Position numbers and translations under genes: made by a program. 64,000 nt of DNA from an uncultured Verrucomicrobiae bacterium (GTDB taxonomy: Bacteria; Verrucomicrobiota; Verrucomicrobiia; Chthoniobacterales; UBA10450), in assembly GCA_963840135.1 (NCBI GenBank), contig CAWIXX010000017.1, positions 263,691 through 327,690 of the forward strand, given 5' to 3'. Positions 18,788 to 30,197 of this stretch are shown piece after piece. Each line of letters begins with the position of its first letter. Position 1 is the first letter of the stretch. The notes beneath the pieces are model-generated. The model saw nothing but the letters and a program-made list of their open reading frames with translations. It did no database searches and was not told where the DNA came from.

Positions 18788-21628
18788 CTACTTATCGCTG
18801 GCCTTCGGCGCGAGGGAAGCGACGATTTGTTCAAAACGCGGGTCGCCACGAAGCGGATCCCACCACGGCATCAGTTTGAGTTGGCCATAGGTGACACCAC
18901 TCGGAACTTGGGTGGCAATGGCCAGTTGTTCGCAAGCCAGATCGTTGTCGCCAACCCATGCGGCAATCTTCGCCAGATACCTGATCATCGCCTTGCCTCT
19001 GATTGCGTCCCTTTCCATCGGAAGAAGCTCGACCGCGCGGCGGCCTTCGCGCAACGCTTCCTCTTTCTGTCCAAGAGCGGCGTCGATTAAACCAAGCACG
19101 CAACGCGCTGGGCCGTGATTTGGTTCTGCCTGCACAATCTTCTCCTGCTCCGCGCGGGCTGCTGTGAAAGCGGCGCGCGCTTTCGCATCATCTTTCATCA
19201 TGAGCGCGATAAGGCCTTCGACGAGCAGATGATTCCATTGAACACTCCCGTCCATGAAAGGCGTTTCGCCCAGCGCAATCAAAGCGTCTTTTGCGGCAGC
19301 GGCGTCGCGCTCTGCTAACGCGCAGGTAAGCCAATTATTGGCGATCCCCCGCACGCCAGCCGAATTCCCTGCGCGGATTTCATCGATCACCTGATGCAAA
19401 GGCTGGGTATCGGCTTTCCAATCCAGGTCCACATTCGCGCGGATCACTTTGGTCTCAGCGCGGTTCGGTTCGGCGGCCATAGCACGGTCCAATACCAATG
19501 TTTCTTCAGCATAGCTTCGGAAAAGGTCGTAATTGGTCGCGATCTGGTGCAACGTCTCCAGATTGTGCGGGTCGAGCTCAACTGCGCGCTCGAGGTCTCG
19601 CGCGGATTCTTCCCAGCGCCCCTGCCGCCTCTGAATGTAACCCATCAACTGGAATATCGGCGCATCGTTTGGGAGGCTCTGACGAGCCACTTCCAGTTGC
19701 GCCAGAGCGCCATCATAATCGAGGTATCCCCAATAAAGATTTTGAGCACGCGCGAGGTGTGCTTCGCCTGCCTCCGGACGTAGCCGAAACGCTGTCTGGA
19801 TTGCCGCTTCGGCCAGGGCAAGGCGTGCGGGAGTATGATCGAAGCCATCGAAGTAAAGGCGATCATGAATATAGGCCAGTTGGCAATACGCCGGAAAAAA
19901 CGCCGGATCTCGCACGACAGCCTGATTCAACAGGTCGGCCGCGTGACGCAGATGCCCTCCGTCATCGTCTCTAAAGCTGGCCGCTAGAAGAAGATTGTTG
20001 GCACGCGTGTAGAGATCGAACGCAGGAATGTCGCTGGTTTTGGGACGTTCGATTTCGCTCTTTTCATTTGCTGAGAGTTTCGCATTGAGTTCGCCGGCAA
20101 TCGCTGTTGCGACTTCATTTTCAATCGCGAATACGTCTGCAAGATCGCGATCGTAGATCTGCCCCCATGAACGGCGGTCAGTGCGCGCATCGACCAGTTC
20201 CGCGTTGACGCGAACGCGATTGCCAGAGCGCTGAACAGTTCCCTCCACCAGATGCGCCACACCGAGTTGCTGGCCGATCTTGCGCAGATCGCGCGCCACT
20301 CCGCTCTTGTATTGCATCACGGATGTGCGCCCGATCACCTTCAGATCCGCGATCTTGGCCAGGTCCGTCAGAATTTCGTCCTGCACGCCATCGGCAAAAT
20401 AGGCGTTATCCGGATCCCGGCTCAGGTTTTCAAACGGAAGCACTGCGACGCTCTTTGCGGGTACCGGGGTTTTAGGCGCAAGAAACTTCTCCCCGAGTAG
20501 CCAAACGACGGCAAGCGCAAGCAAAAGGCACGCAGTACTCGCGCTCGCTAAAATTGGATTGCGCCGCGACCAGCGGAAAACTCGCGCTGGTGCTCGCACG
20601 GGCCGCGCGATGATCGGTCGTCTCTCCAGCCAGCGCTCAAGATCTTCCGCAAGCGCACCAGCGGTCTGATACCGCGCCTTGGGATCGCGTTCGAGGCAAC
20701 GGGCGACAATTATTTCGAGATCGCGATCGAGCGGTGGGATGAATGACCGAAGCTTCGGCGCCGGAGTTGCGGCAGCCTGCCGAATGACCGAAAGCGCATT
20801 CGCGCCGATGAAAGGCGGCCGGCCGGCAAGCAGATTGAACAGGATTGCGCCGAGACTATAAATATCCGCCGCAGGACCGAAGTTGGCACCCTCAGCTTGC
20901 TCGGGAGCGATGTAACCGGGTGTACCAAACGTGGTTAGGGTTCGGGTGAGGTCGCTCTCTTCATCGAGCCATTTCGCCAGACCGAAATCGCTCACCAGCG
21001 GTTCGCCGCGTGCGTCCAACAGAATATTTCCCGGCTGAAGATCGCGGTGAAGAATCCCGTATGTGTGCGCATACTCAATTGCGCGGGCGATCTTCGACAT
21101 CAGCCGTGCACATTCGCGCGGTCCCCTGCGCAGGCCGGACGCAGCAGTGCGCAAGCTTCCTCCGGTAGCGAATTTCATGCTGAAAAAAGGAACTCCGTCC
21201 TCTGTTTCGCTGACTTCGTAAACCGGAAGAATATTCGGATGATCGAGACTGGCAGCTGCTTCCGCCTCACGACGGAACCGCGCGAGTGTCTCATGCGAAT
21301 CCGCGTGGTAGCTGACCACACGTTTCAACGCCACGATGCGTCCGGAGTGGCGCTGCCGTGCTCGGTAAATCACACCCATGCCGCCGCGCCCGACTTCCTT
21401 TAGAATTTCGTAATTGCCGAGCCGCCATTGTTTGTCAGGCACATCGGCCTCTCCGAGCACGCCCTCGAACACTTCCGCGGACGCTTCGACTTCTGCTTCA
21501 AAGTTTTCTTTAAGAAGACAACTCACGCAGCAACCGTTATCGAGACGGGTGGTAGCGCCACATTGCTCGCATCTTGCTGCGCCTTCCACGCCCATGACTG
21601 AGCCGGAGGGATCTGCCACAGCTTTCAT
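18788..21628 (-). CDS. Transmembrane Ser/Thr protein kinase with a periplasmic sensor and TPR region
   Basis: 946 aa. N-terminal 4-Cys cluster (CEQCG...CCVSC). Hanks kinase motifs (GRGGMGVIYRA, HRDLQPGNILL, DFGLAK). One TM helix, then SVAVLPFENLSRDPDNAYFADGVQDEILTDLAKI and TPR-like repeats. Confidence 0.9.
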   Translation of the reverse strand: MKAVADPSGSVMGVEGAARCEQCGATTRLDNGCCVSCLLKENFEAEVEASAEVFEGVLGEADVPDKQWRLGNYEILKEVGRGGMGVIYRARQRHSGRIVALKRVVSYHADSHETLARFRREAEAAASLDHPNILPVYEVSETEDGVPFFSMKFATGGSLRTAASGLRRGPRECARLMSKIARAIEYAHTYGILHRDLQPGNILLDARGEPLVSDFGLAKWLDEESDLTRTLTTFGTPGYIAPEQAEGANFGPAADIYSLGAILFNLLAGRPPFIGANALSVIRQAAATPAPKLRSFIPPLDRDLEIIVARCLERDPKARYQTAGALAEDLERWLERRPIIARPVRAPARVFRWSRRNPILASASTACLLLALAVVWLLGEKFLAPKTPVPAKSVAVLPFENLSRDPDNAYFADGVQDEILTDLAKIADLKVIGRTSVMQYKSGVARDLRKIGQQLGVAHLVEGTVQRSGNRVRVNAELVDARTDRRSWGQIYDRDLADVFAIENEVATAIAGELNAKLSANEKSEIERPKTSDIPAFDLYTRANNLLLAASFRDDDGGHLRHAADLLNQAVVRDPAFFPAYCQLAYIHDRLYFDGFDHTPARLALAEAAIQTAFRLRPEAGEAHLARAQNLYWGYLDYDGALAQLEVARQSLPNDAPIFQLMGYIQRRQGRWEESARDLERAVELDPHNLETLHQIATNYDLFRSYAEETLVLDRAMAAEPNRAETKVIRANVDLDWKADTQPLHQVIDEIRAGNSAGVRGIANNWLTCALAERDAAAAKDALIALGETPFMDGSVQWNHLLVEGLIALMMKDDAKARAAFTAARAEQEKIVQAEPNHGPARCVLGLIDAALGQKEEALREGRRAVELLPMERDAIRGKAMIRYLAKIAAWVGDNDLACEQLAIATQVPSGVTYGQLKLMPWWDPLRGDPRFEQIVASLAPKASDK

Positions 21629-22398
21629 CAGTTAGTCTCTGCCAGCACGGCACAGAGATGGCGAATCTCGTCATCAATGTCCGCCAGGTTTTCCACAGTG
21701 CGCGCGACTTCATCGCGCAAGAACCACCGGTAACGCTTCCGCAAATTGTGGAGCTGCTTTTTTACCATTGTCTCCGCGATTCCCAAAGCAGCCGCAAGAT
21801 TGGCGTACGACAAATCGCTGCATCCCGGCGTAAGATGCGCGCTCAACATCTCGAACAGCCGGAGTCGGCCTTTGCATTCGCATTCCTCGCGGAGACGTTG
21901 CAGAGCGTGTTCTACAACTGTCGCCGCCCAACGGAGATCAAAGAGATGCTCTGTCGAAATATACTCGAGGGTCTTAGCGGGGACGGACAACTGGGACGGC
22001 GCCTCGGCAATCCATTCGTCCCAGGAAACGAACTCCATTCTGCCACCCCGCTTAACTGCGCGAGTTCTCTCTTCGGCATGACTGAGAAAATTCTGCAGCG
22101 ACTTAAGCAGAAACGAACGGAATCGGCCACGATGTTCGTCGGCGCGCCGGAGCCAGTTGCTCTCCAGGATCATCGCGAAAAAATCCTGGGTGAGATCCTG
22201 CGCTTCCTCGATGGGGTAACCCTGACGACTTACGAACACGAAGACGGGCCGCCAATACGTCCGGCAAAGTTCAGCGAGCGCTTCGCGCGCCTTTTGCTCA
22301 TCGGCGTTTGAGCCTGCGGCGGAAAGAATCAGGCTCCAGCGCGTCGTGCCGAACCCGCGCAGTTCGGCTGAGCCCGTCGCCGCCATCTCCGATCTCAT
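21628..22398 (-). CDS. ECF-type RNA polymerase sigma factor (large, kinase-associated type)
   Basis: 256 aa. Region 2-like EEAQDLTQDFFAMILE. Region 4 HTH LSYANLAAALGIAETMVKKQLHNLRKRY. Its stop overlaps the kinase start by 1 nt (TGATG). No anti-sigma gene is adjacent. Confidence 0.8.
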   Translation of the reverse strand: MRSEMAATGSAELRGFGTTRWSLILSAAGSNADEQKAREALAELCRTYWRPVFVFVSRQGYPIEEAQDLTQDFFAMILESNWLRRADEHRGRFRSFLLKSLQNFLSHAEERTRAVKRGGRMEFVSWDEWIAEAPSQLSVPAKTLEYISTEHLFDLRWAATVVEHALQRLREECECKGRLRLFEMLSAHLTPGCSDLSYANLAAALGIAETMVKKQLHNLRKRYRWFLRDEVARTVENLADIDDEIRHLCAVLAETN

Positions 22399-22463
22399 CT
22401 AAAGCACAGGCTGCCCATTGTCGGATTCTTTTACAAGCGTAAATACCATCCGCCGGAGCGCGA

Positions 22464-22586
22464 GTAGGGCGTCTGTGTCAGACGCCGACCAAGGCGCTTC
22501 ACAGAATGGAGCCGCGGAGGTGCGAGCGACATAGACGGGCAGCATATCTGGGCTAGAGAGCGGGAGCGAACGAGTCAACGCCCTAC
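22464..22586. repeat. Family B element (GTAGGGCG ... CGCCCTAC termini, about 125 nt)
   Basis: GTAGGGCGTCTGTGTCAGACGCC hairpin head. Internal ACAGAATGGAGCCG and GAGCGAACGAGTCAA blocks are shared with the copy at 48944. Lies in the sigma/fibre divergent intergenic region. Confidence 0.8.
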
Positions 22587-22631
22587 AAATCGGATGAACC
22601 GTCCCGGATACAACTTTCCAAAAATTATTCC

Positions 22632-22655
22632 GGAACTTACGTCCGCCACTTCGTT
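22632..22655 (+). promoter_or_regulatory. Candidate ECF-type promoter upstream of fibre paralogue 1
   Basis: GGAAC (22632-22636), 15 nt, then CGTT (22652-22655), about 30 nt upstream of ATG 22685. An AAAGGAAAAA purine-rich stretch lies before the ATG. The spacer is 1-2 nt shorter than classic ECF promoters. Confidence 0.3.
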
Positions 22656-22684
22656 AGAACCTTGATGAAAGGAAAAATTAATTT

Positions 22685-24010
22685 ATGAAAAATCGAAACA
22701 TTATACTCACAACGATACTCTTCGCCCTTGGTTCCTTTGCGCTTCCGCAGGGGACGCAAGCGGTCGAACCAGCGGCGCCGGATACGGCCTTAGCCGGAGG
22801 CAACACTGCGGATGGGCAAAGCGCCCTTGGGAGCCTAACCACCGGTCAATTCAATTCGGCATTTGGCTTTTTGTCGCTTCTAAGCAACGCCGGCGCCAAC
22901 TTCAACACGGGTGTTGGTGCCGGTGCGCTCCTTAGCAACACTGCAGACTCAAATACGGCCGTTGGTGCTGGAACGCTTTTTAGCAATACCACCGGGGGCG
23001 ACAACACGGCCAACGGAGCGTTCGCCCTCTTTAGCAACGTTAGCGGCATCTTCAACACGGCCACCGGTTTTCAGGCGCTCCTGAACAGTACCGGCGACAG
23101 AAACACGGCCAATGGTGCTGATGCGCTCCTTTCCAACACGAGCGGCGGTGAGAACACAGCCGACGGTAATAATGCGCTCCGTAACAACACTATCGCCAAT
23201 TTCAACACGGCGGCCGGCGCGTCGGCCCTGGTTACCAACACCACTGGCCATGACAACACGGCCGTTGGTACAAACGCACTCTTCAGCAATACGACGGCCA
23301 ACTTCAACACGGGCGTTGGATCGGCCGCGCTTGGCGGAAGTACTGGCGACAGCAACACAGCTATGGGCTTTGGCGCGCTACAGGGTGACACCACCGGCAG
23401 CAACAATGTCGCACTGGGCGCTGGAGCTGGTTCGGCTCTGACTACTGGCGATAATAACATCTGTATCGGCCACAACGTTACTGGTGTGGCAGGGGACGCC
23501 GACACCATCCGGATCGGGAACGTGAACACCACCACCACCTTTGTCCGCGGGATCAGCGGAACAGCCGTTACCGGCACACCAGTTGTGGTAAACGGCAATG
23601 GTCAACTTGGCGTCGCACCCTCTTCGAAGCGTTTCAAGGACGAGATCAAGCCAATGGAAAAAGCGAGCGAAGTGCTCCTGGCACTAAAGCCGGTTACGTT
23701 TCGTTACAAGAAGGAGATTGATCCGGCAGGCACATCGCAGTTCGGGCTTGTGGCTGAAGAGGTAGAAAAGGTGAATCGGGACCTGGTGGTACACGACAAG
23801 AAAGGAAAACCGTACAGCGTGCGTTACGAGCAGGTGAACGCGATGTTGCTTAACGAGTTCCTCAAAGAACACAACACGGTGCAAGAGTTGAGGAAGGAAC
23901 TCGCAGCGCTCGCGGCAACTGTGAAAGACCAGGGAGCGCAAATCGAGAAAGTGAGCGCTCGGCTCGAGGTCAGTAAGCCGGCGGCAAAAGTGGTCCTCAA
24001 TAACCCGTAA
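22685..24010 (+). CDS. Secreted repeat-fibre protein with C-terminal S74-type intramolecular chaperone domain (paralogue 1)
   Basis: 441 aa. Signal peptide, then about a dozen 16-17-residue NTAxGxxALxSNTxGxx repeats. TIRIGN...TFVRGISG neck. SSKRFKDEIKPM at 23621-23656, then VTFRYK...GLVAEEVEKV...YEQVNAMLLNEFLKEH and a heptad-rich tail. Confidence 0.8.
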   Translation: MKNRNIILTTILFALGSFALPQGTQAVEPAAPDTALAGGNTADGQSALGSLTTGQFNSAFGFLSLLSNAGANFNTGVGAGALLSNTADSNTAVGAGTLFSNTTGGDNTANGAFALFSNVSGIFNTATGFQALLNSTGDRNTANGADALLSNTSGGENTADGNNALRNNTIANFNTAAGASALVTNTTGHDNTAVGTNALFSNTTANFNTGVGSAALGGSTGDSNTAMGFGALQGDTTGSNNVALGAGAGSALTTGDNNICIGHNVTGVAGDADTIRIGNVNTTTTFVRGISGTAVTGTPVVVNGNGQLGVAPSSKRFKDEIKPMEKASEVLLALKPVTFRYKKEIDPAGTSQFGLVAEEVEKVNRDLVVHDKKGKPYSVRYEQVNAMLLNEFLKEHNTVQELRKELAALAATVKDQGAQIEKVSARLEVSKPAAKVVLNNP

Positions 24011-24090
24011 AACTATTCCAGGATGGTAGCTTGTGACCGGAGTTTCCGACCTCGGCTACAGCTGCAATATGGAAGCTTGTAATTTGTGAC

Positions 24091-24113
24091 GGCGGGCGTG
24101 CCGCCCCCTTTTT
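24091..24113 (+). terminator. Putative intrinsic terminator after fibre paralogue 1
   Basis: GGCGG-gcgtg-CCGCC followed by CCCTTTTT. Confidence 0.55.
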
Positions 24114-24123
24114 AAATGAAACT

Positions 24124-24146
24124 GCAGCCGCCACGGCTGCCACTAC
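24124..24146 (-). repeat. GTAG-headed REP-like singlet (minus orientation)
   Basis: The plus strand reads GCAGCCGCCACGGCTGCCACTAC. Stem GCAGCC/GGCTGC, with the complement of GTAG at 24143-24146. Confidence 0.5.
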
Positions 24147-24258
24147 AGAAATAACGCCCCGCAAATCCAAAAGGTCAGTGATCAGATCGAACACGAATTC
24201 GCAATAACCAAAATCACAGAAGGCCAAAACACAAAAGCTAATGAAAGGAAATCGAACT

Positions 24259-25598
24259 ATGAAAAATCGAAACAACAGAATAACAGCAATACTCTTGGCG
24301 CTTGGCTTCCTTGCGGTCGCCTCCTTTGCGCTTCCGCAGAGGACGGAGGCGGTAAGTCCGGCGCCAGACGGAGGCTATCCCGGGGGCAACACGGCAGAGG
24401 GGCAAAATGCCCTGTTGAGCCTTACCAGCGGCGTTTACAATACAGGAATTGGTATATTCTCGCTACTAAGCCTTACGGACGGCAGTTTCAACACGGGTGT
24501 CGGCGCTGGAGCACTGTTTACCAATACCGCCAGCGAAAATACAGCTACCGGCGCCGGGGCACTTTTTAGCAATACCACCGGGGGGACAACACGGCCAACG
24601 GAGCATTTGCCCTGTTCAGCAACACCATCGGTCAGAACAACACGGCCAATGGAGTGTCTGCGCTCCAGAGCAACACAGAAGGCAGTGATAATACAGCCAT
24701 TGGTCGTCAAGCGCTCTTCAGCAACACCAGCGGCGGCAGCAACACGGCGATCGGTGATTCCGCACTCTTCAACAACACCACCGGTAGCGTCAACACGGCT
24801 GTCGGTCTGCAAGCGCTCGAAAACAACACCACCGGCAATCGCAACACGGCCACTGGCTTAAGCGCGCTTAGTGGCAATGCGACCGGCAACGATAACACTG
24901 CCACTGGTCACGAAGCGCTCCAGTTCAACCTCAGCAGCGGCAACACGGCCATGGGTAGCGGTTCGCTTTCTGAAAACGCGACTGGCAGCAATAACACGGC
25001 CTTGGGTTTCAATGCTGGCGCCAACGTGGACGGCGATAATAATATCGATATTGGGAGCGGCGTTCAGGGTGTAGCTGGCGAGAGCAACACGATCCGAATC
25101 GGCGATACAGATATTACTGACACCTTTATCAGAGGAATCAGTGGAGCAACGGCTTCTGGTGGTGCTGCAGTTTTTGTGAATGGAAACGGCAAGCTGGGCA
25201 CGATGACCTCATCAGCGCGATTCAAAAATGAGATCAAGCCGATGGGCAACGCCAGCGAAGTTATTCTGACTCTGAGGCCGGTAAGCTTTCGCTACAAGAA
25301 AGAGATTGATCCGCAAAGCATCCCGCAATTTGGCCTGGTGGCCGAGGACGTAGAAAAAGTGAATCCCGATCTGGTCACTCGCGATCGGGAGGGCAAGCCG
25401 CAGACGGTTCGTTACGAGCAGATCAACGCAATGCTGCTCAACGAGTTTCTCAAAGAACACAGTAAAGTTGGGCAACTTGAAGCTGCGCTCGACGCGGTCA
25501 ACAAACGTCTAAATGAGCAGGAGACAAGAATTCAGAAAGTCAGTGCAAAACTTGAGGTGAACAAACCGGCGACAACCATGGCTCTCAACAGTCAGTAA
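24259..25598 (+). CDS. Secreted repeat-fibre protein with S74-type chaperone domain (paralogue 2); frameshifted at a G6 run, 24580-24585
   Basis: Same architecture as paralogue 1. The 5' part is in the frame of 24241. The remainder is in the frame of 24654 and is open back to GAC at 24585. Paralogue 1 has GGGGGCGAC where this copy has GGGGGGAC. SSARFKNEIKPM at 25209. Confidence 0.75.
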
Positions 25599-25627
25599 AA
25601 AACAAAACAATCCAAGGAAATTAAATT

Positions 25628-26917
25628 ATGACACATCGTAACACACTATTCACAACCATACTCTTAGCCTTTTGGTTCTTGGTGTTTAGTTGCCTTGTAT
25701 TCCCACAGAAGACGCAAGCGGTCAGTCCTGCGCCGGACGGGGGCTATCCCGGGGGCAACACGGCAGAGGGAACGAACGCCCTTTTGGGCCTGACCGCTGG
25801 CACGTACAATACGGCAGTAGGTTTCTTGTCGCTCGCGAGCAACACGGAAGGCCAATTCAATACCGCCCTGGGCGCGGGGGCACTTCTTGCCAACGTGGGA
25901 GATCCAGGTTCAGGCGCAGGAGTCGGAAATACGGCCACTGGTGCGGGAGCGCTTTTAAGCAACACCACCGGCGAGAGCAATACTGCAAATGGCGCGTTCG
26001 CGCTCTTTAGCAATAGTACCGGTGCGGTCAATACAGCCACCGGTGCTGACGCCCTATTGAACAACACCACCGGCTTCGCCAATACTGCTAATGGTGTTGG
26101 GGCTCTTTTCAGCAACAGCATCGGCAACAACAACACAGCCACGGGGTTTAGCGCCCTCTCCGCCAATATGAATGGCGACGGCAACACGGCGATCGGTCGG
26201 TCTGCGCTCACTATCACCACTGGCAGCGGCAACACGGCTTTGGGCGCTAACGCCGGCAACGCTCTCACTGCGGGTAATTTTAATATCGATATCGGCGTCG
26301 ATGTTATCGGTGTGGCAGGAGAGAGCAATACCATCCGGATCGGTGCCAACTTGGACGACACACCGGGAGCCTCAGCGTGCCATATCGGCGGGATCTATAA
26401 CCAGTTGGTTGATCCCGGCACCGCAAGTTCTATGGCAATCGATGCCACTGGAAAGTTAGGTACGGCGCTCTCGTCGCGGCGCTTCAAGCATGACATTAAA
26501 CCAATGGACAAGGCGAGCGAAGCGATTCTGGCGCTCAAGCCTGTGACCTTCCATTACAAGAGCGACGCTAAAAACACGCCGTGCTTTGGTTTAATCGCCG
26601 AAGAAGTGGCCGGGGTAAATCCCGATCTCGTCGTCCGCAACAAGAACGGCGAAATCTGGAGCGTTCGCTATGATCAGATCAACGCGATGTTGCTCAACGA
26701 GTTCCTCAAAGAACACCGGAAACTGCAGGAACAGCAAACGACGATCGGGCAACTGAAATCCAATGCTGCAAAGCAGGAAGCCACGATCAGTGAGCTCAAG
26801 AGCGATCTGCAAATTGTTATTGCTCGCCTCAAGGACCAGGATTCAAAAATCCAGAGCGTGAGCGCGGAAGTTGAAATGAACAACCGCTCATCACACGTGG
26901 TCGCTACCAATCCGTAA
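25628..26917 (+). CDS. Secreted repeat-fibre protein with S74-type chaperone domain (paralogue 3)
   Basis: 429 aa with the same architecture. SSRRFKHDIKPM at 26471. Only 29 nt downstream of paralogue 2. Confidence 0.8.
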   Translation: MTHRNTLFTTILLAFWFLVFSCLVFPQKTQAVSPAPDGGYPGGNTAEGTNALLGLTAGTYNTAVGFLSLASNTEGQFNTALGAGALLANVGDPGSGAGVGNTATGAGALLSNTTGESNTANGAFALFSNSTGAVNTATGADALLNNTTGFANTANGVGALFSNSIGNNNTATGFSALSANMNGDGNTAIGRSALTITTGSGNTALGANAGNALTAGNFNIDIGVDVIGVAGESNTIRIGANLDDTPGASACHIGGIYNQLVDPGTASSMAIDATGKLGTALSSRRFKHDIKPMDKASEAILALKPVTFHYKSDAKNTPCFGLIAEEVAGVNPDLVVRNKNGEIWSVRYDQINAMLLNEFLKEHRKLQEQQTTIGQLKSNAAKQEATISELKSDLQIVIARLKDQDSKIQSVSAEVEMNNRSSHVVATNP

Positions 26918-26939
26918 AGCAAAAGACTGAACACGGATA

Positions 26940-26971
26940 CAGCTGGGCTTGAGAAGGTGAGCGCCCAGCTG
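26940..26971 (+). terminator. Stable hairpin after fibre paralogue 3, possibly a terminator (no T-run)
   Basis: CAGCTGGGC - 14 nt - GCCCAGCTG, a 9-bp stem 23 nt after the stop. Confidence 0.35.
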
Positions 26972-27106
26972 GTTGCAGGCCGCATGGTGGACTCATAGGA
27001 AGCGAATCTTCGCGGAAAATTGCACTGAGTAATCGGTAAGGGGGATGCAGGCAATAGTAATTGGCTTTGACGACTACCTTATCGCTGGGTCCGACTGCTC
27101 AACGGA

Positions 27107-28840
27107 TTGACAATTGACGCCCGAATTTCCTACTCTGGGGTTCTGAAAACGCTCCGGTTATCGGGTCTGCTCGCAACGTCATTTCTTGTTTTGTCACCGT
27201 TGCGGGCGCAGGATGCGAAATTCGCGGCGGATAACTTGAAGTACAGCCGCGATTTCTATTCCAAGGTCCATTTCGTTGCGATCGCGAAGCTTGATTTCGG
27301 CCCAGGCGGCAAGGCGGAATTCAAGTACGATCGTTATCCAAACGGCGGGCCGGAAAGAATACAGGCCGGCGGCGCCGAGTTTGCCCGGAAGGATGGAAAG
27401 ACCTGGCTAAGATCGAATGATTGGGGTGAAACCGGCAAGCCGGTTGACGCTCAAACTTCCAAGCGACTGAACAACTGGGTTGGCCTGATCGATGGACGAT
27501 TGATTGGCGGACCCGCTTCGAATGATCCGAGCGAAGGTGCGACAGTAATGAAATTCCTGGGGAAAGAAGATCATGGCGAGCGCGAAGAATTCGTTTTCGA
27601 AGAATCAAAAGAAAAACCGAAAGCGAAGTCCTATCCGCACGTCAGCTTTGGACGATATAAGAATGCGAAGGATCAGCAGGTGTTGCTCTCGGAATTTTCC
27701 GGACCGATGCGGCTCGGCGCGCGCGAGGCGAAGGTGAACATCAGTTTTAGCTATCTGGTCGCGGTGCAGATAAAAGATGAGACCAACGCGGCCGAGTCGC
27801 CATCACCATCGCCGACTGCAGCGAACAGACCAGGGAGCGGCCCTCTCAAGTCCGCCTCCGCCGGCGAGTCAGCATCATCAGCGTCGCCTGCTGATAACGA
27901 GTCTGTTGAGGATCTTGTTAATCGCGGGATCGAAAAAGGAAAGGAAGGCGACTTGGATGGAGCAATCGGGGATTTCACCCGCGCGATTGAGCTCAATCCA
28001 AAAGATGACGCCCCTTATTATAACCGTGCCCAAGCGAAGTGGCTAAAGAAGGACGCGGCCGGCGCCATTGCCGACTACACCCGAGCCATAGAACTCGGCT
28101 CCACAAACCCCGCTGCTTACAACAATCGCGGCAACGCTAGAGCGGAAAATAACGACCGTGACGGCGCAATTGCGGATTATACACGCGCAATCCAACTCAA
28201 GCCCGATTACGCACGCGCCTACCACAATCGCGCTGTCACGAAGAAAGAAAACGGGGATGCGACTGGCGCCGAGGCTGATTTCAAGGCCGCTGAGAAACTC
28301 GATCTGGCATTGGCGAGCGAAAGATCGGCCACGGATTCAAAAGACAATCGGCCTTCAGGAGCGACCAGCGTCAGTCTCCTGGATGGCAAGCTTAAGCTCG
28401 ATATTCCCTCTGATTTTTCGCGCGATTCTGACGATCCCAAGGACCCAAAAACGCTAGCCAAATTCTCAGGCCCCGATGGCGCATGGGGCATAGTGTTGCG
28501 CGGCACGCACGGCCTCGCACCGGATAAGCTCGATGGTTACCTAAAGATGCGTGTGGCCGAATATAGTAAGGGATTCAAATGGCTGCCGAAGGATTCGCAT
28601 TTGCAATGGTTGAAGAAAGACATCGTGACGATCGATGGTCGCAAATGGGCGGACTGGCGATATATCCCGATGCTAAAAGGAAAAAAAGATTATTCCCATA
28701 GTCCGGTCTATACACGATTCCTAACGACTTCTTACAAGGGCCAGCTCCTAGAGATCAGCTTTACCTCGAACCTAAACACGACTCCCGAGCTAAAGAAAGA
28801 GATAGACCACGTCATGGCTTCAGTACATCTCGAAGAATGA
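27107..28840 (+). CDS. Secreted TPR-repeat protein with unknown N- and C-terminal domains
   Basis: 577 aa, non-ATG start, signal peptide. Ser/Pro/Ala linker, then four TPR units (AIGDFTRAIELNP, AIADYTRAIELGS, AIADYTRAIQLKP). Unassigned flanking domains. Confidence 0.65.
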   Translation: MTIDARISYSGVLKTLRLSGLLATSFLVLSPLRAQDAKFAADNLKYSRDFYSKVHFVAIAKLDFGPGGKAEFKYDRYPNGGPERIQAGGAEFARKDGKTWLRSNDWGETGKPVDAQTSKRLNNWVGLIDGRLIGGPASNDPSEGATVMKFLGKEDHGEREEFVFEESKEKPKAKSYPHVSFGRYKNAKDQQVLLSEFSGPMRLGAREAKVNISFSYLVAVQIKDETNAAESPSPSPTAANRPGSGPLKSASAGESASSASPADNESVEDLVNRGIEKGKEGDLDGAIGDFTRAIELNPKDDAPYYNRAQAKWLKKDAAGAIADYTRAIELGSTNPAAYNNRGNARAENNDRDGAIADYTRAIQLKPDYARAYHNRAVTKKENGDATGAEADFKAAEKLDLALASERSATDSKDNRPSGATSVSLLDGKLKLDIPSDFSRDSDDPKDPKTLAKFSGPDGAWGIVLRGTHGLAPDKLDGYLKMRVAEYSKGFKWLPKDSHLQWLKKDIVTIDGRKWADWRYIPMLKGKKDYSHSPVYTRFLTTSYKGQLLEISFTSNLNTTPELKKEIDHVMASVHLEE

Positions 28841-29466
28841 AAAGATCTGTTACTCTCGGCTGCCTTTGTTGGTTCCTCGTTTCAAATCAGTCGACTACTG
28901 CCCAAGAGCCCGCGACGCCAAGTTCGGTTTCGCCGGATGAACAATGGGAATATCGGTGTACCGATGGACTATGGTCGTCGATCGTGAAAGCGGGTACGAA
29001 TCAAATGGCGCTAGATCTTTCTAATGACGTGGAGGTCCCTTATTGTCACGACGCAGCGATCATTTGGGCGCCTAATTCGAAACGGTTTGCTTTCAATTAC
29101 ACTCCGCCACACCCGCCCCATACCACTTATGAAACGGTCGCGTTTTATCAGCTACGCGATAATAAATGGGTGCAGCTGCAATCGCCCATTGACGTGGACT
29201 CGACGCCTGGGACGTTCGCAAAACTGGTCAAGCGGCTCTCGATAGACGGTCACCGCTCCGATCCAATCCCTGATATCGTAAAGGCGCGTCAATGGACCGA
29301 CGCTCACACTGCGATCGTTTACGTTGATTGGGGCTCCTCTGGACGCAGCTCACGCAAACAGACTTTCCTTATCACATTGAAGTTCGATGCGGAAGGCAAC
29401 TCGAAGATCGTCAAAACCCATCGGATGTCAGAGAAAGAGGTCAAAGAGAACGCTAACGAAAAATGA
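28837..29466 (+). CDS. Hypothetical secreted protein
   Basis: 209 aa with a signal peptide. ATGA overlap with the upstream gene. Weakly paralogous to the next gene (VSPDEQW vs VSPDKKF; RDNKW vs RDNKL). Confidence 0.6.
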   Translation: MKRSVTLGCLCWFLVSNQSTTAQEPATPSSVSPDEQWEYRCTDGLWSSIVKAGTNQMALDLSNDVEVPYCHDAAIIWAPNSKRFAFNYTPPHPPHTTYETVAFYQLRDNKWVQLQSPIDVDSTPGTFAKLVKRLSIDGHRSDPIPDIVKARQWTDAHTAIVYVDWGSSGRSSRKQTFLITLKFDAEGNSKIVKTHRMSEKEVKENANEK

Positions 29467-30197
29467 GATCACTTTTTACCTTTGCCGCAATCGTTGGCTG
29501 CACCATCGGCTGCGTTTTTTCCATTTTCGCAGTTGATGAAGAATCGGAAGCACAGGGCGAAGACTCGTCTGCGGGGTTGCCCGAGCAGTACGTAAAAGAT
29601 TATCTCATTGCCGGCAGCACTGTTTCGCCGGACAAGAAGTTCGCTGTCATTTATCCGACGTTAGGAACAGAAGAAGCGGCGGAAGACGCGAACCATCCGG
29701 AGCGCATCAAAGACCATATTGTCGCGCTGAAGCCTTTCGCTATCCTGGGCGAGTTACAGACGAAATATGCTTACTTCCAAAATGAGAATCACGGCGGAAT
29801 CAGCGCGGAATGGTCCGATGACAGCTCGGTCGCATTGATCACGCTCGATGGAAAGTGGGGGCCGCATGATGTCTTTCTACTGGAATTCCGCGACAATAAG
29901 CTAGCTCGAACGACGAATGTTCTCGCGAAGGCTCACGATCTTTTATTACCAGACTATCGCAAGTCTAAGGCTGAACCTTACAACGACATTTTCGATTTCA
30001 TTTTTGACAGCGAGGACGGTCCCGTGTTTAAGCTCGATGGCAACAATCGCGTCGTAATCGATGGCGATGCGGTGACTGATCCGAAGGGAATTTCCGAGCA
30101 TAGATGGTCCGCACAGCTAAAGGCGGTTTGGAACATTGCTCAGGCGAAGTTCACAGACCAAAAGATCACACGAAGCAGGGCAAAGAAGAGTCAGTGA
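29463..30197 (+). CDS. Hypothetical exported or membrane-anchored protein
   Basis: 244 aa with a hydrophobic N-terminus. ATGA overlap with the upstream gene. Confidence 0.6.
   Translation: MRSLFTFAAIVGCTIGCVFSIFAVDEESEAQGEDSSAGLPEQYVKDYLIAGSTVSPDKKFAVIYPTLGTEEAAEDANHPERIKDHIVALKPFAILGELQTKYAYFQNENHGGISAEWSDDSSVALITLDGKWGPHDVFLLEFRDNKLARTTNVLAKAHDLLLPDYRKSKAEPYNDIFDFIFDSEDGPVFKLDGNNRVVIDGDAVTDPKGISEHRWSAQLKAVWNIAQAKFTDQKITRSRAKKSQ

Follow-up and report, generated by a model that had tools for sequence, protein, structure and literature searches.

Why should a bacterial chromosome carry, in tandem and among housekeeping genes, three genes whose products resemble the far end of a phage tail fibre and yet begin with a signal peptide? 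The question is raised by an uncultured Verrucomicrobiae bacterium of the order Chthoniobacterales (GenBank assembly GCA_963840135.1), of which we analysed 64,000 nucleotides, positions 263,691 to 327,690 of contig CAWIXX010000017.1 (the window). The three paralogues are co-oriented and follow the same plan: a signal peptide, a run of short repeats, a neck and a C-terminal Peptidase_S74 domain. Their lengths and order, as called from open reading frames (ORFs), agree with a preliminary description of the locus (Table 1). We consider it likely, on the evidence below, that the products of the three genes are fibre proteins that leave the cytoplasm by way of Sec, assemble themselves and descend from the distal half of a phage tail fibre.

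Probably exported proteins resembling the distal half of a phage fibre

The C-terminal domain is the clearest part of this architecture. All three paralogues match Pfam PF13884 (Peptidase_S74; E = 2e-10, 3.3e-12 and 4.9e-12). Their scores of 41-47 bits lie above the cut-off of 22, the matches take in positions 1-57 of the 58 in the profile, and each begins exactly on the first Ser of an S-S-x-R-F-K motif. This motif occurs as SSKRFK, SSARFK and SSRRFK, followed by x-(D/E)-IKPM, and a YEQ(V/I)NAMLLNEFLKEH block is also present. From these blocks the preliminary description had proposed a phage-type S74 intramolecular chaperone with a self-cleaving Ser-Lys pair; the profile matches bear out the assignment to S74. 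Ser313 and Lys318 of paralogue 1 are invariant in an alignment of 90 homologues, and their counterparts in phage S16 gp37 (PDB 6f45) are the S and K of its SDRRIK motif. The spacing is the canonical S-x4-K, with Ser or Ala replacing the usual Asp after the Ser, and the variant motifs of relatives are still S-x4-K.

A predicted structure of residues 262-441 has a predicted local distance difference test score (pLDDT) of >90 across the domain core. When this model was compared with the PDB using Foldseek, ranks 1-11 were all intramolecular chaperone (ICA) domains and the next match had an E value of about 1; the best were MyRF (7dc3, E = 3.8e-5), endosialidase (3gw6, E = 7.7e-4) and GA-1 (3gud, E = 6e-3). 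The domain as modelled thus has the ICA fold of a beta core and a long C-terminal helix, and the heptad-rich tail that had been listed on its own is this helix rather than a separate element. The chaperone structures were reached through fold comparison because sequence searches of the PDB, whether started from the one protein or from a profile of 90 sequences, gave only 6f45 and not 3gw6, 4uw8 or the solved tip structures of the mosaic adhesive trimer (MAT) fibres of Bdellovibrio discussed below.

Two side observations concern this end of the proteins. The extreme C-terminus (...QKVSAQLExSKPAxxVVLNNP/Q, about 15 residues, for example 23963-24007 in the window) is conserved across the family and modelled with low confidence; it would go with the discarded chaperone fragment. 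In addition, one metagenomic homologue (P0005, 768 aa) holds two complete repeat-plus-S74 units in a single ORF, explained either by fusion of a tandem pair or by an artefact of read-through or assembly.

At the opposite end, the signal peptides finish in the PQxTxA noticed earlier (...PQGTQA/VE, ...PQRTEA/VS and ...PQKTQA/VS in paralogues 1, 2 and 3, the slash marking the predicted site), and paralogues 2 and 3 share an identical mature N-terminus, VSPAPDGGYPGGNTAEG, again as described. The feature is general: among 111 family genes with a determinable start, all 111 have a basic N-terminus and a hydrophobic core, and 103 have an AxA-type site, most often AQA, directly before a conserved PxPDGG.

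Between the two ends lie the repeats, for which we counted 13, 13 and 10 N-T-A-x-G anchors in paralogues 1, 2 and 3 at a spacing of 16-17 residues, close to the dozen originally estimated. Per-position entropy over 818 repeats gives the consensus N-T-A-x-G-x-x-A-L-x-x-N-T-x-G-x-x, in which positions 1, 2, 3, 5, 8, 9, 12, 13 and 15 are conserved and positions 4, 6, 7, 10, 11, 16 and 17 are highly variable (2.8-3.6 bits), a pattern that would be expected of a fixed scaffold with a variable exposed face. A likeness to Hep_Hag or YadA-head repeats had been suggested but found no support: neither these nor pectate-lyase-like repeats gave a Pfam or NCBIfam match at E <= 1, a profile search of the PDB had no adhesin among its matches, and the sole adhesin found by structure, SadA, had an E value of 2.7. 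The neck motif TIRIG...TF(V/I)RGISG...VNGNG(Q/K)LG, first taken to be common to all three proteins, is found in paralogues 1 and 2 only, and paralogue 3 has a different neck.

The same order of parts is found in phages. A tblastn search of 50,697 phage records matched 138, of which 14 cover at least 80% of paralogue 1. Residues 40-403 of that protein align at 34% identity with residues 429-809 of the 811-aa tail fibre gp52 of Pelagibacter phage HTVC111P, in an alignment that spans repeats, neck and S74 domain, and additional repeat-only alignments reach up to 48%. The tail spikes of Mammaliicoccus and Staphylococcus phages (812 aa), SPO1 gp2.52 and P-SSM2 behave similarly, and the PHROG matches are to tail fibre, tail spike and virion structural protein families. 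By structure, 50 viral predictions match our model at E <= 1e-3, including caudoviral ICA-domain proteins and giant-virus fibres. Across the phage fibres compared (HTVC111P gp52, the Mammaliicoccus and Staphylococcus spikes, SPO1 gp2.52, S16 gp37, K1F endosialidase and T5 pb1), the order of repeats, neck and S74 domain is kept, 80-90% of the mature protein aligns at 29-48% identity, the Ser and Lys are aligned and the chaperone fold is alike. Unlike the proteins studied here, however, phage fibres are about 810 aa long, lie among phage structural genes and fold in the cytoplasm; their N-termini are hydrophilic and without signal-peptide features. They carry about 400 extra N-terminal residues, the virion-attachment half, where the bacterial proteins have the signal peptide. 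From these alignments, the mature protein corresponds to the far half of a phage fibre in all its parts, from the repeats through the neck to the S74 domain, with a signal peptide in place of the virion-attachment half. The idea of a domesticated phage chaperone therefore stands as to phage origin, but the captured unit is larger than was thought, namely the entire distal half of the fibre.

We found no sign that these genes belong to a resident prophage. Thirty large ORFs examined across the window are housekeeping or regulatory, with genes for the 2-oxoglutarate dehydrogenase complex, RecO, RecQ, ThrRS, PCMT, amino-acid permeases, a GH15 glycosidase, SecA and MnmA among them, and none encodes a capsid, portal, terminase, baseplate or integrase protein. 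The window also has no tRNA gene, and its G+C content is level across the array. Four longer syntenic contigs (L082, L083, L010 and L016) have no phage genes and show the same host genes on both sides, which supports the earlier statement that no prophage surrounds the array. The only close relative in IMG/VR (L084:242-1924), which is 53% identical and has a signal peptide, sits at one end of an 8.5-kb contig classed as viral, adjoining replication- or recombination-type ORFs; this may be host DNA flanking a prophage, or else a mobile element with a family gene on board.

We propose that maturation would proceed as follows. The precursor would cross the inner membrane unfolded by way of Sec, and signal peptidase I would cut after TQA or TEA. 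In the periplasm, the S74 domain, a type of chaperone that needs no ATP, would trimerise through its beta core and long helix, and the trimer would template the 10-13 repeats and the neck into a trimeric rod. The Ser-Lys dyad would then cut the chain before Ser313, Ser318 and Ser282 (paralogue 1, repaired paralogue 2 and paralogue 3), releasing chaperone fragments of 14.5, 14.6 and 16.6 kDa and leaving mature chains of 27.4, 27.7 and 23.7 kDa that are predicted to be acidic (pI about 4). The finished rod would combine a conserved, inward-facing scaffold with seven variable, presumably exposed positions in each repeat.

Table 1. Features of the fibre gene array and its regulatory flank (window coordinates)
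Feature	Position	Strand	Details
Membrane Ser/Thr protein kinase	18788-21628	-	946 aa; TolB-like/TPR sensor part
ECF-like sigma factor	21628-22398	-	256 aa; divergent from array; weak TIGR02937 match
Candidate ECF-type promoter, GGAAC-N15-CGTTAG	22632-22657	+	last base 28 nt 5' of paralogue 1 ATG
Paralogue 1	22685-24010	+	441 aa
Paralogue 1 signal peptide	22685-22762	+	residues 1-26
Paralogue 1 repeats	22802-23455	+	residues 40-257; thirteen of 16-17 residues
Paralogue 1 neck		+	residues 258-312
Paralogue 1 S74 chaperone-protease domain	23621-24007	+	residues 313-441
Paralogue 1 putative catalytic pair	23621-23623; 23636-23638	+	Ser313; Lys318
Terminator-like stem-loop with T run	24090-24115	+	GGCGGGCGTGCCGCC CCCTTTTT; consensus scan only
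Paralogue 2 upstream in-frame ATG	24241	+
Paralogue 2	24259-25598	+	446 aa after repair; MKNRN start
One-base deletion splitting paralogue 2	24580-24586	+	beside or within G6 run
Paralogue 2 S74 domain	from 25209	+	starts at Ser; Lys 25224-25226
Paralogue 3	25628-26917	+	429 aa; signal peptide residues 1-31; ten repeats; divergent neck
Paralogue 3 S74 domain	from 26471	+	Ser282 26471-26473; Lys287 26486-26488; longer coiled-coil tail

A large verrucomicrobial family in variable arrays

The family to which the three genes belong is very large. Searching 5.8 billion proteins gave at least 8000 matches, all with PF13884, under names such as 'tail fiber domain-containing protein [Candidatus Udaeobacter sp.]', 'Chaperone of endosialidase', 'trimeric autotransporter adhesin' and 'hypothetical protein'. 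A set of 1.84 billion cluster representatives yielded 59,170 matches at E <= 1e-3, of which 8,479 reach E <= 1e-30, and repeat proteins of 2000-5000 aa are included in these matches. Two signature peptides led to at least 596 places in species-representative genomes, at least 553 of them confirmed, and to only three relatives in 2.9 million viral contigs. Our locus-level surveys of arrays, neighbours and taxa cover the best 79 of the at least 596 places. Nearly all of these are in Verrucomicrobiota (Chthoniobacterales, Candidatus Udaeobacter and 'Spartobacteria'), and the few other taxon labels probably reflect binning. Candidatus Udaeobacter is among the most abundant bacteria of soil; it is uncultured and thought to live on compounds that other cells release.

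At the 79 loci, the genes form co-oriented arrays of one to nine copies, with at least two copies in 41 and with frequent fragments, and single metagenome-assembled genomes hold at least 21 family ORFs from four loci, fragments included. Array members have been gained or lost recently, as the two closest metagenomic relatives of the window carry a fourth, split copy between paralogue 3 and the tetratricopeptide repeat (TPR) gene that follows (L082, 12340-13445; L083, 6976-8384) and the window does not; its counterpart (26918-27106) is only 190 bp. Measured against L082 and L083, the ratio of non-synonymous to synonymous substitution rates (dN/dS) of the three genes is 0.24-0.31, compared with 0.15-0.24 for neighbouring genes, from which we conclude that the family is under purifying selection. 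The synonymous rate itself is 2-5 times that of the sigma factor and RecQ genes, and the N-terminal region of paralogue 2 differs outright from its orthologues in these relatives; together, these features suggest exchange among paralogues.

Paralogue 2 is interrupted in the present assembly, where it reads as two overlapping ORFs (24241-24861 and 24654-25598). At the break, ACCGGGGGG-ACAAC (24577-24590), one added base restores a reading frame of 446 aa from 24259; paralogue 1 has GGGGGCGACAAC at the equivalent place. As L082 and L083 each have an intact gene of 449 aa (GGGGGGAACAAC in L082, GGGGGGGGCAAC in L083), the lesion is either a very recent inactivation or, as its position at a homopolymer would allow, a sequencing error. 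The repaired gene has a dN/dS of 0.24-0.29, so its constraint is not relaxed. Phase variation at the G run was considered and set aside: substitutions there in the relatives preserve the frame, and we saw no evidence of slipped-strand switching.

Finally, we note four relatives outside the S74 group that have a signal peptide, PxPDGGY and repeats (L007:10763-12097, L034:4975-6174, L019:8468-9721 and L015:6892-8235). In two of them the C-terminus is formed by a collagen-like GXY run, a small domain (...YAVYAKN / ...WDVYQKN) or both, one has only a coiled-coil tail and one has a degraded S74 core.

Neighbouring genes and candidate regulation

Divergent from the array, the window encodes an extracytoplasmic function (ECF)-like sigma factor, whose match to TIGR02937 (sigma70-ECF; E = 7e-9) falls below the cut-off. 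The stop of the kinase gene overlaps the sigma gene by one base, so the kinase is probably the partner of the sigma factor. There are documented cases of ECF sigma factors that a partner Hanks-type kinase activates by phosphorylation (PMC13147305, PMC8999054). Transcription of the array would probably be driven by the adjacent sigma factor under the control of this kinase. The 29-bp gap between paralogues 2 and 3 makes their co-transcription probable, and the stem-loop behind paralogue 1 suggests that the first gene is a separate transcription unit. A scan of 22300-27200 found no sigma-70 promoter.

The linkage extends beyond the window. When we clustered the 963 neighbouring ORFs of the 79 loci without prior assumptions, the commonest neighbours were membrane proteins of kinase/TPR type, with 44 members in 29 loci, and ECF sigma factors of two lineages. 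One of these lineages is the divergent type of the window; the other is a TIGR02999/PF07638 type that occurs at 8 loci, with a median distance of 131 bp to a family gene. Secreted beta-helix or repeat proteins of various kinds also recur. The density of ECF sigma genes is 3.2 per 100 kb in the first 1.5 kb from an array and 0-0.5 at 5-10 kb; for kinase/TPR genes it is 7.3 per 100 kb at 1.5-3 kb and 1.4 at 7.5-10 kb, whereas overall gene density is flat with distance. In 17 of the 50 loci with enough upstream sequence, a sigma or kinase gene is one of the two nearest upstream genes.

Sequences upstream of family genes fall into several conserved classes that track the sigma lineage, and in some arrays, such as those of L018 and L019, every gene is preceded by its own copy of a motif. 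The GGAAC-N15-CGTTAG element of the window is conserved in four syntenic loci (L010, L016, L082 and L083).

Two other upstream classes were seen. One, a conserved leader of about 110 nt, precedes a subfamily with the N-terminus MNPLIQLK... (L007:3335-3477, L040:9822-9964, L054:4328-4470 and 13 more) and does not occur in the window. It contains a stem with weak covariation support, and a second possible pairing, CCCCGC/GCGGGG, adjoins the ribosome-binding site and shows compensatory changes in two copies; the leader could be a regulatory RNA structure. The other class, GGAACTGGATTGCAG...GCAGTTCAAC, often after GGTTCC, precedes the non-S74 or collagen-type subfamily (N-terminus MTTL..RKSIGRSP...) at L003:13579-13606, L007:10754-10783, L027:9824-9853, L034:5027-5056 and L060:6266-6303, and no sigma factor gene was seen near these loci. 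On the 3' side of the array, the window (27107-30197) encodes a secreted-looking TPR protein of 577 aa with a low-complexity, S/P-rich linker, which is syntenic in L083, and then two ORFs of 209 and 244 aa without a Pfam match.

Known fibres, competing explanations and possible role

The principle of an S74 domain placed behind a signal peptide to make a cellular fibre has already been published for the MAT fibres of Bdellovibrio bacteriovorus, and the conceptual novelty of the present family is lower than the preliminary description assumed. Strain HD100 has 21 MAT genes, 13 of which end in S74, and the fibres are exposed on the cell surface and take part in the handling of prey (Caulton et al. 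2024, PMC10769870). In Bd3182, the S74 domain is active behind a signal peptide, and the S782A substitution blocks cleavage (PMC10769870). Both families are chromosomal, non-prophage, multi-gene repertoires with an N-terminal signal peptide, a beta-rich trimeric fibre (the trimer being a prediction here) and a C-terminal S74 domain with Ser-x4-Lys (self-cleavage likewise predicted here), and both include S74 and non-S74 variants. They differ in several respects. MAT proteins are about 1000 aa long, against 430-450 aa here, and have a beta-rich N-terminal domain of about 130 aa, thought to hold the fibre on the cell, which by its description the present family lacks. The motif is S-D-x-x-x-K in MAT and S-S-x-R-F-K here. 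Unlike MAT, the family studied here has a shaft made of a regular 17-residue repeat common to phage fibres, and its genes lie in tandem arrays, often beside ECF sigma/kinase pairs. Bdellovibrio is a predator, whereas the present host is an oligotrophic soil verrucomicrobium not known as one. Judged by these comparisons, the family looks like a short variant without the MAT anchor domain. Our literature searches found no paper that ties this family, or S74 domains, to Udaeobacter or Verrucomicrobia.

Two further groups reuse or share the module. S74 fibre proteins of giant viruses (Edafosvirus, Tupanvirus and the Bodo saltans virus 'FhaB-like adhesion protein') match in structure over repeats and S74 domain (E = 3e-11 to 4e-11), but they are capsid fibrils of eukaryotic viruses, much longer and without a bacterial signal peptide context. 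The membrane-bound transcription factors MYRF and MrfA have the same ICA fold and are another cellular reuse of the phage module. In MYRF, the ICA domain works on the cytosolic side, where it frees the DNA-binding domain from the ER membrane, and there are no fibre repeats.

If MAT fibres and phage receptor-binding proteins are a guide, the repertoire is most likely a set of variable binding proteins, adhesins or lectins, at the cell surface or outside the cell, a role that we hold with much less confidence than the maturation mechanism. Several observations weigh against the interpretation that we favour. First, the full-length monomer model is only moderately confident (pLDDT 67), and in it the repeat region has no usable fold, with one short strand per repeat and pLDDT of 50-75. 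Second, it is not obvious how the fibre would be held: only about 13 residues (VxPxPDGGYPGG) separate the predicted signal-peptide site from the first repeat, the mature protein has no recognisable anchor, lipobox, beta-barrel or sorting domain, and no secretion system or anchoring partner recurs beside the arrays among the 963 ORFs of the 79 loci. The fibre could remain periplasmic. Third, paralogue 2 carries a frameshift in the present sequence. Finally, roughly two arrays in three lack a sigma or kinase gene next to them, and the whole region of about 95 bp upstream of paralogue 1 is conserved in the syntenic loci, candidate promoter included; GGAAC-N15-CGTTAG is for this reason a candidate promoter and not a footprint.

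Of the competing explanations, the one that survives best departs from our interpretation in biological role only and shares its molecular mechanism. The fibres would be exported mimics of receptor-binding proteins that serve phage defence or competition, by masking the cell's own receptors or coating its neighbours, and not general adhesins. Homology to phage receptor-binding fibres, a large and variable repertoire with exposed variable positions, synonymous divergence raised 2-5 fold over neighbouring genes (consistent with exchange among paralogues) and linkage to envelope-signalling ECF sigma/kinase pairs are all in keeping with such a role, and a comparable ECF43-type pair turns on a defence system in Xanthomonas (PMC13147305). 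However, no known defence genes recur beside the arrays and no toxin or enzymatic domain was detected with Pfam or NCBIfam, and we regard this explanation as quite unlikely.

We give far less credence to the notion that the proteins are cytoplasmically assembled fibres of a phage-derived particle encoded elsewhere, whether a prophage, a tailocin, an extracellular contractile injection system or a gene transfer agent. The mature region is homologous to bona fide tail fibres and spikes, and the IMG/VR relative at the end of a viral-class contig, beside replication-type genes, would also fit. Yet the signal peptide found in all 111 scorable genes has no equivalent in the phage homologues, and the half of about 400 aa that would attach a fibre to a virion is missing. 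Phage structural genes are absent from the window, none recurs near the arrays of the 79 loci, and only three matches occur in 2.9 million viral contigs; at least about 20 family ORFs per genome is far above the need of one particle.

Slightly less credible again is that the genes are decaying remnants of old prophage tail fibres with no present function. The frameshift in paralogue 2 and the split or truncated copies common in the arrays of related genomes speak for decay, but homopolymer errors, which many of the source assemblies may carry, could account for some of these fragments. Purifying selection, repaired paralogue 2 included, conserved synteny with intact orthologues, and a catalytic dyad, signal peptide and N-terminal motif maintained across thousands of proteins all point the other way. 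Trimeric autotransporter-type adhesins (YadA/Hia-like) are scarcely credible at all: JGI labels many homologues as such, and N, T, A, G and S abound in the repeats as they do in those of adhesin heads, but the lack of adhesin matches described above extends to the YadA anchor (no Pfam match at E <= 1), and where such an adhesin would have its beta-barrel anchor these proteins end in an S74 domain.

Within the reach of sequence analysis, then, the picture of an exported, non-prophage fibre family in expanded arrays holds. It follows that 'trimeric autotransporter adhesin' is a misleading database label, and that genes of this family in soil metagenomes should not be counted as prophage signals. 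The minimal form, with about 250-290 mature residues, could be a handy object for structural studies and engineering. Few targets of ECF sigma/kinase pairs can be identified, and the fibre genes may be among them; their linkage offers candidate targets for regulators whose regulons are mostly unmapped.

What remains of most interest is how large the family is, how closely it is tied to a dominant lineage of uncultured soil bacteria, and what role it plays. With at least about 20 ORFs per genome, each of about 1.3 kb, it takes up a noticeable share of these genomes, and it extends the finding from Bdellovibrio that cells have adopted the phage S74 folding device for secreted fibres. Reading the products as exported, self-processing fibres provides a testable hypothesis on how these bacteria interact with their surroundings. 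A bolder and rather unlikely extension is that dozens of exported, self-maturing, phage-derived fibres form a combinatorial repertoire for recognising microbial or phage surfaces, expressed array by array through ECF sigma/kinase pairs. If true, a non-predatory oligotroph would possess a MAT-like system, used to attach to other cells or scavenge from them, or as receptor-masking decoys against its own phages.

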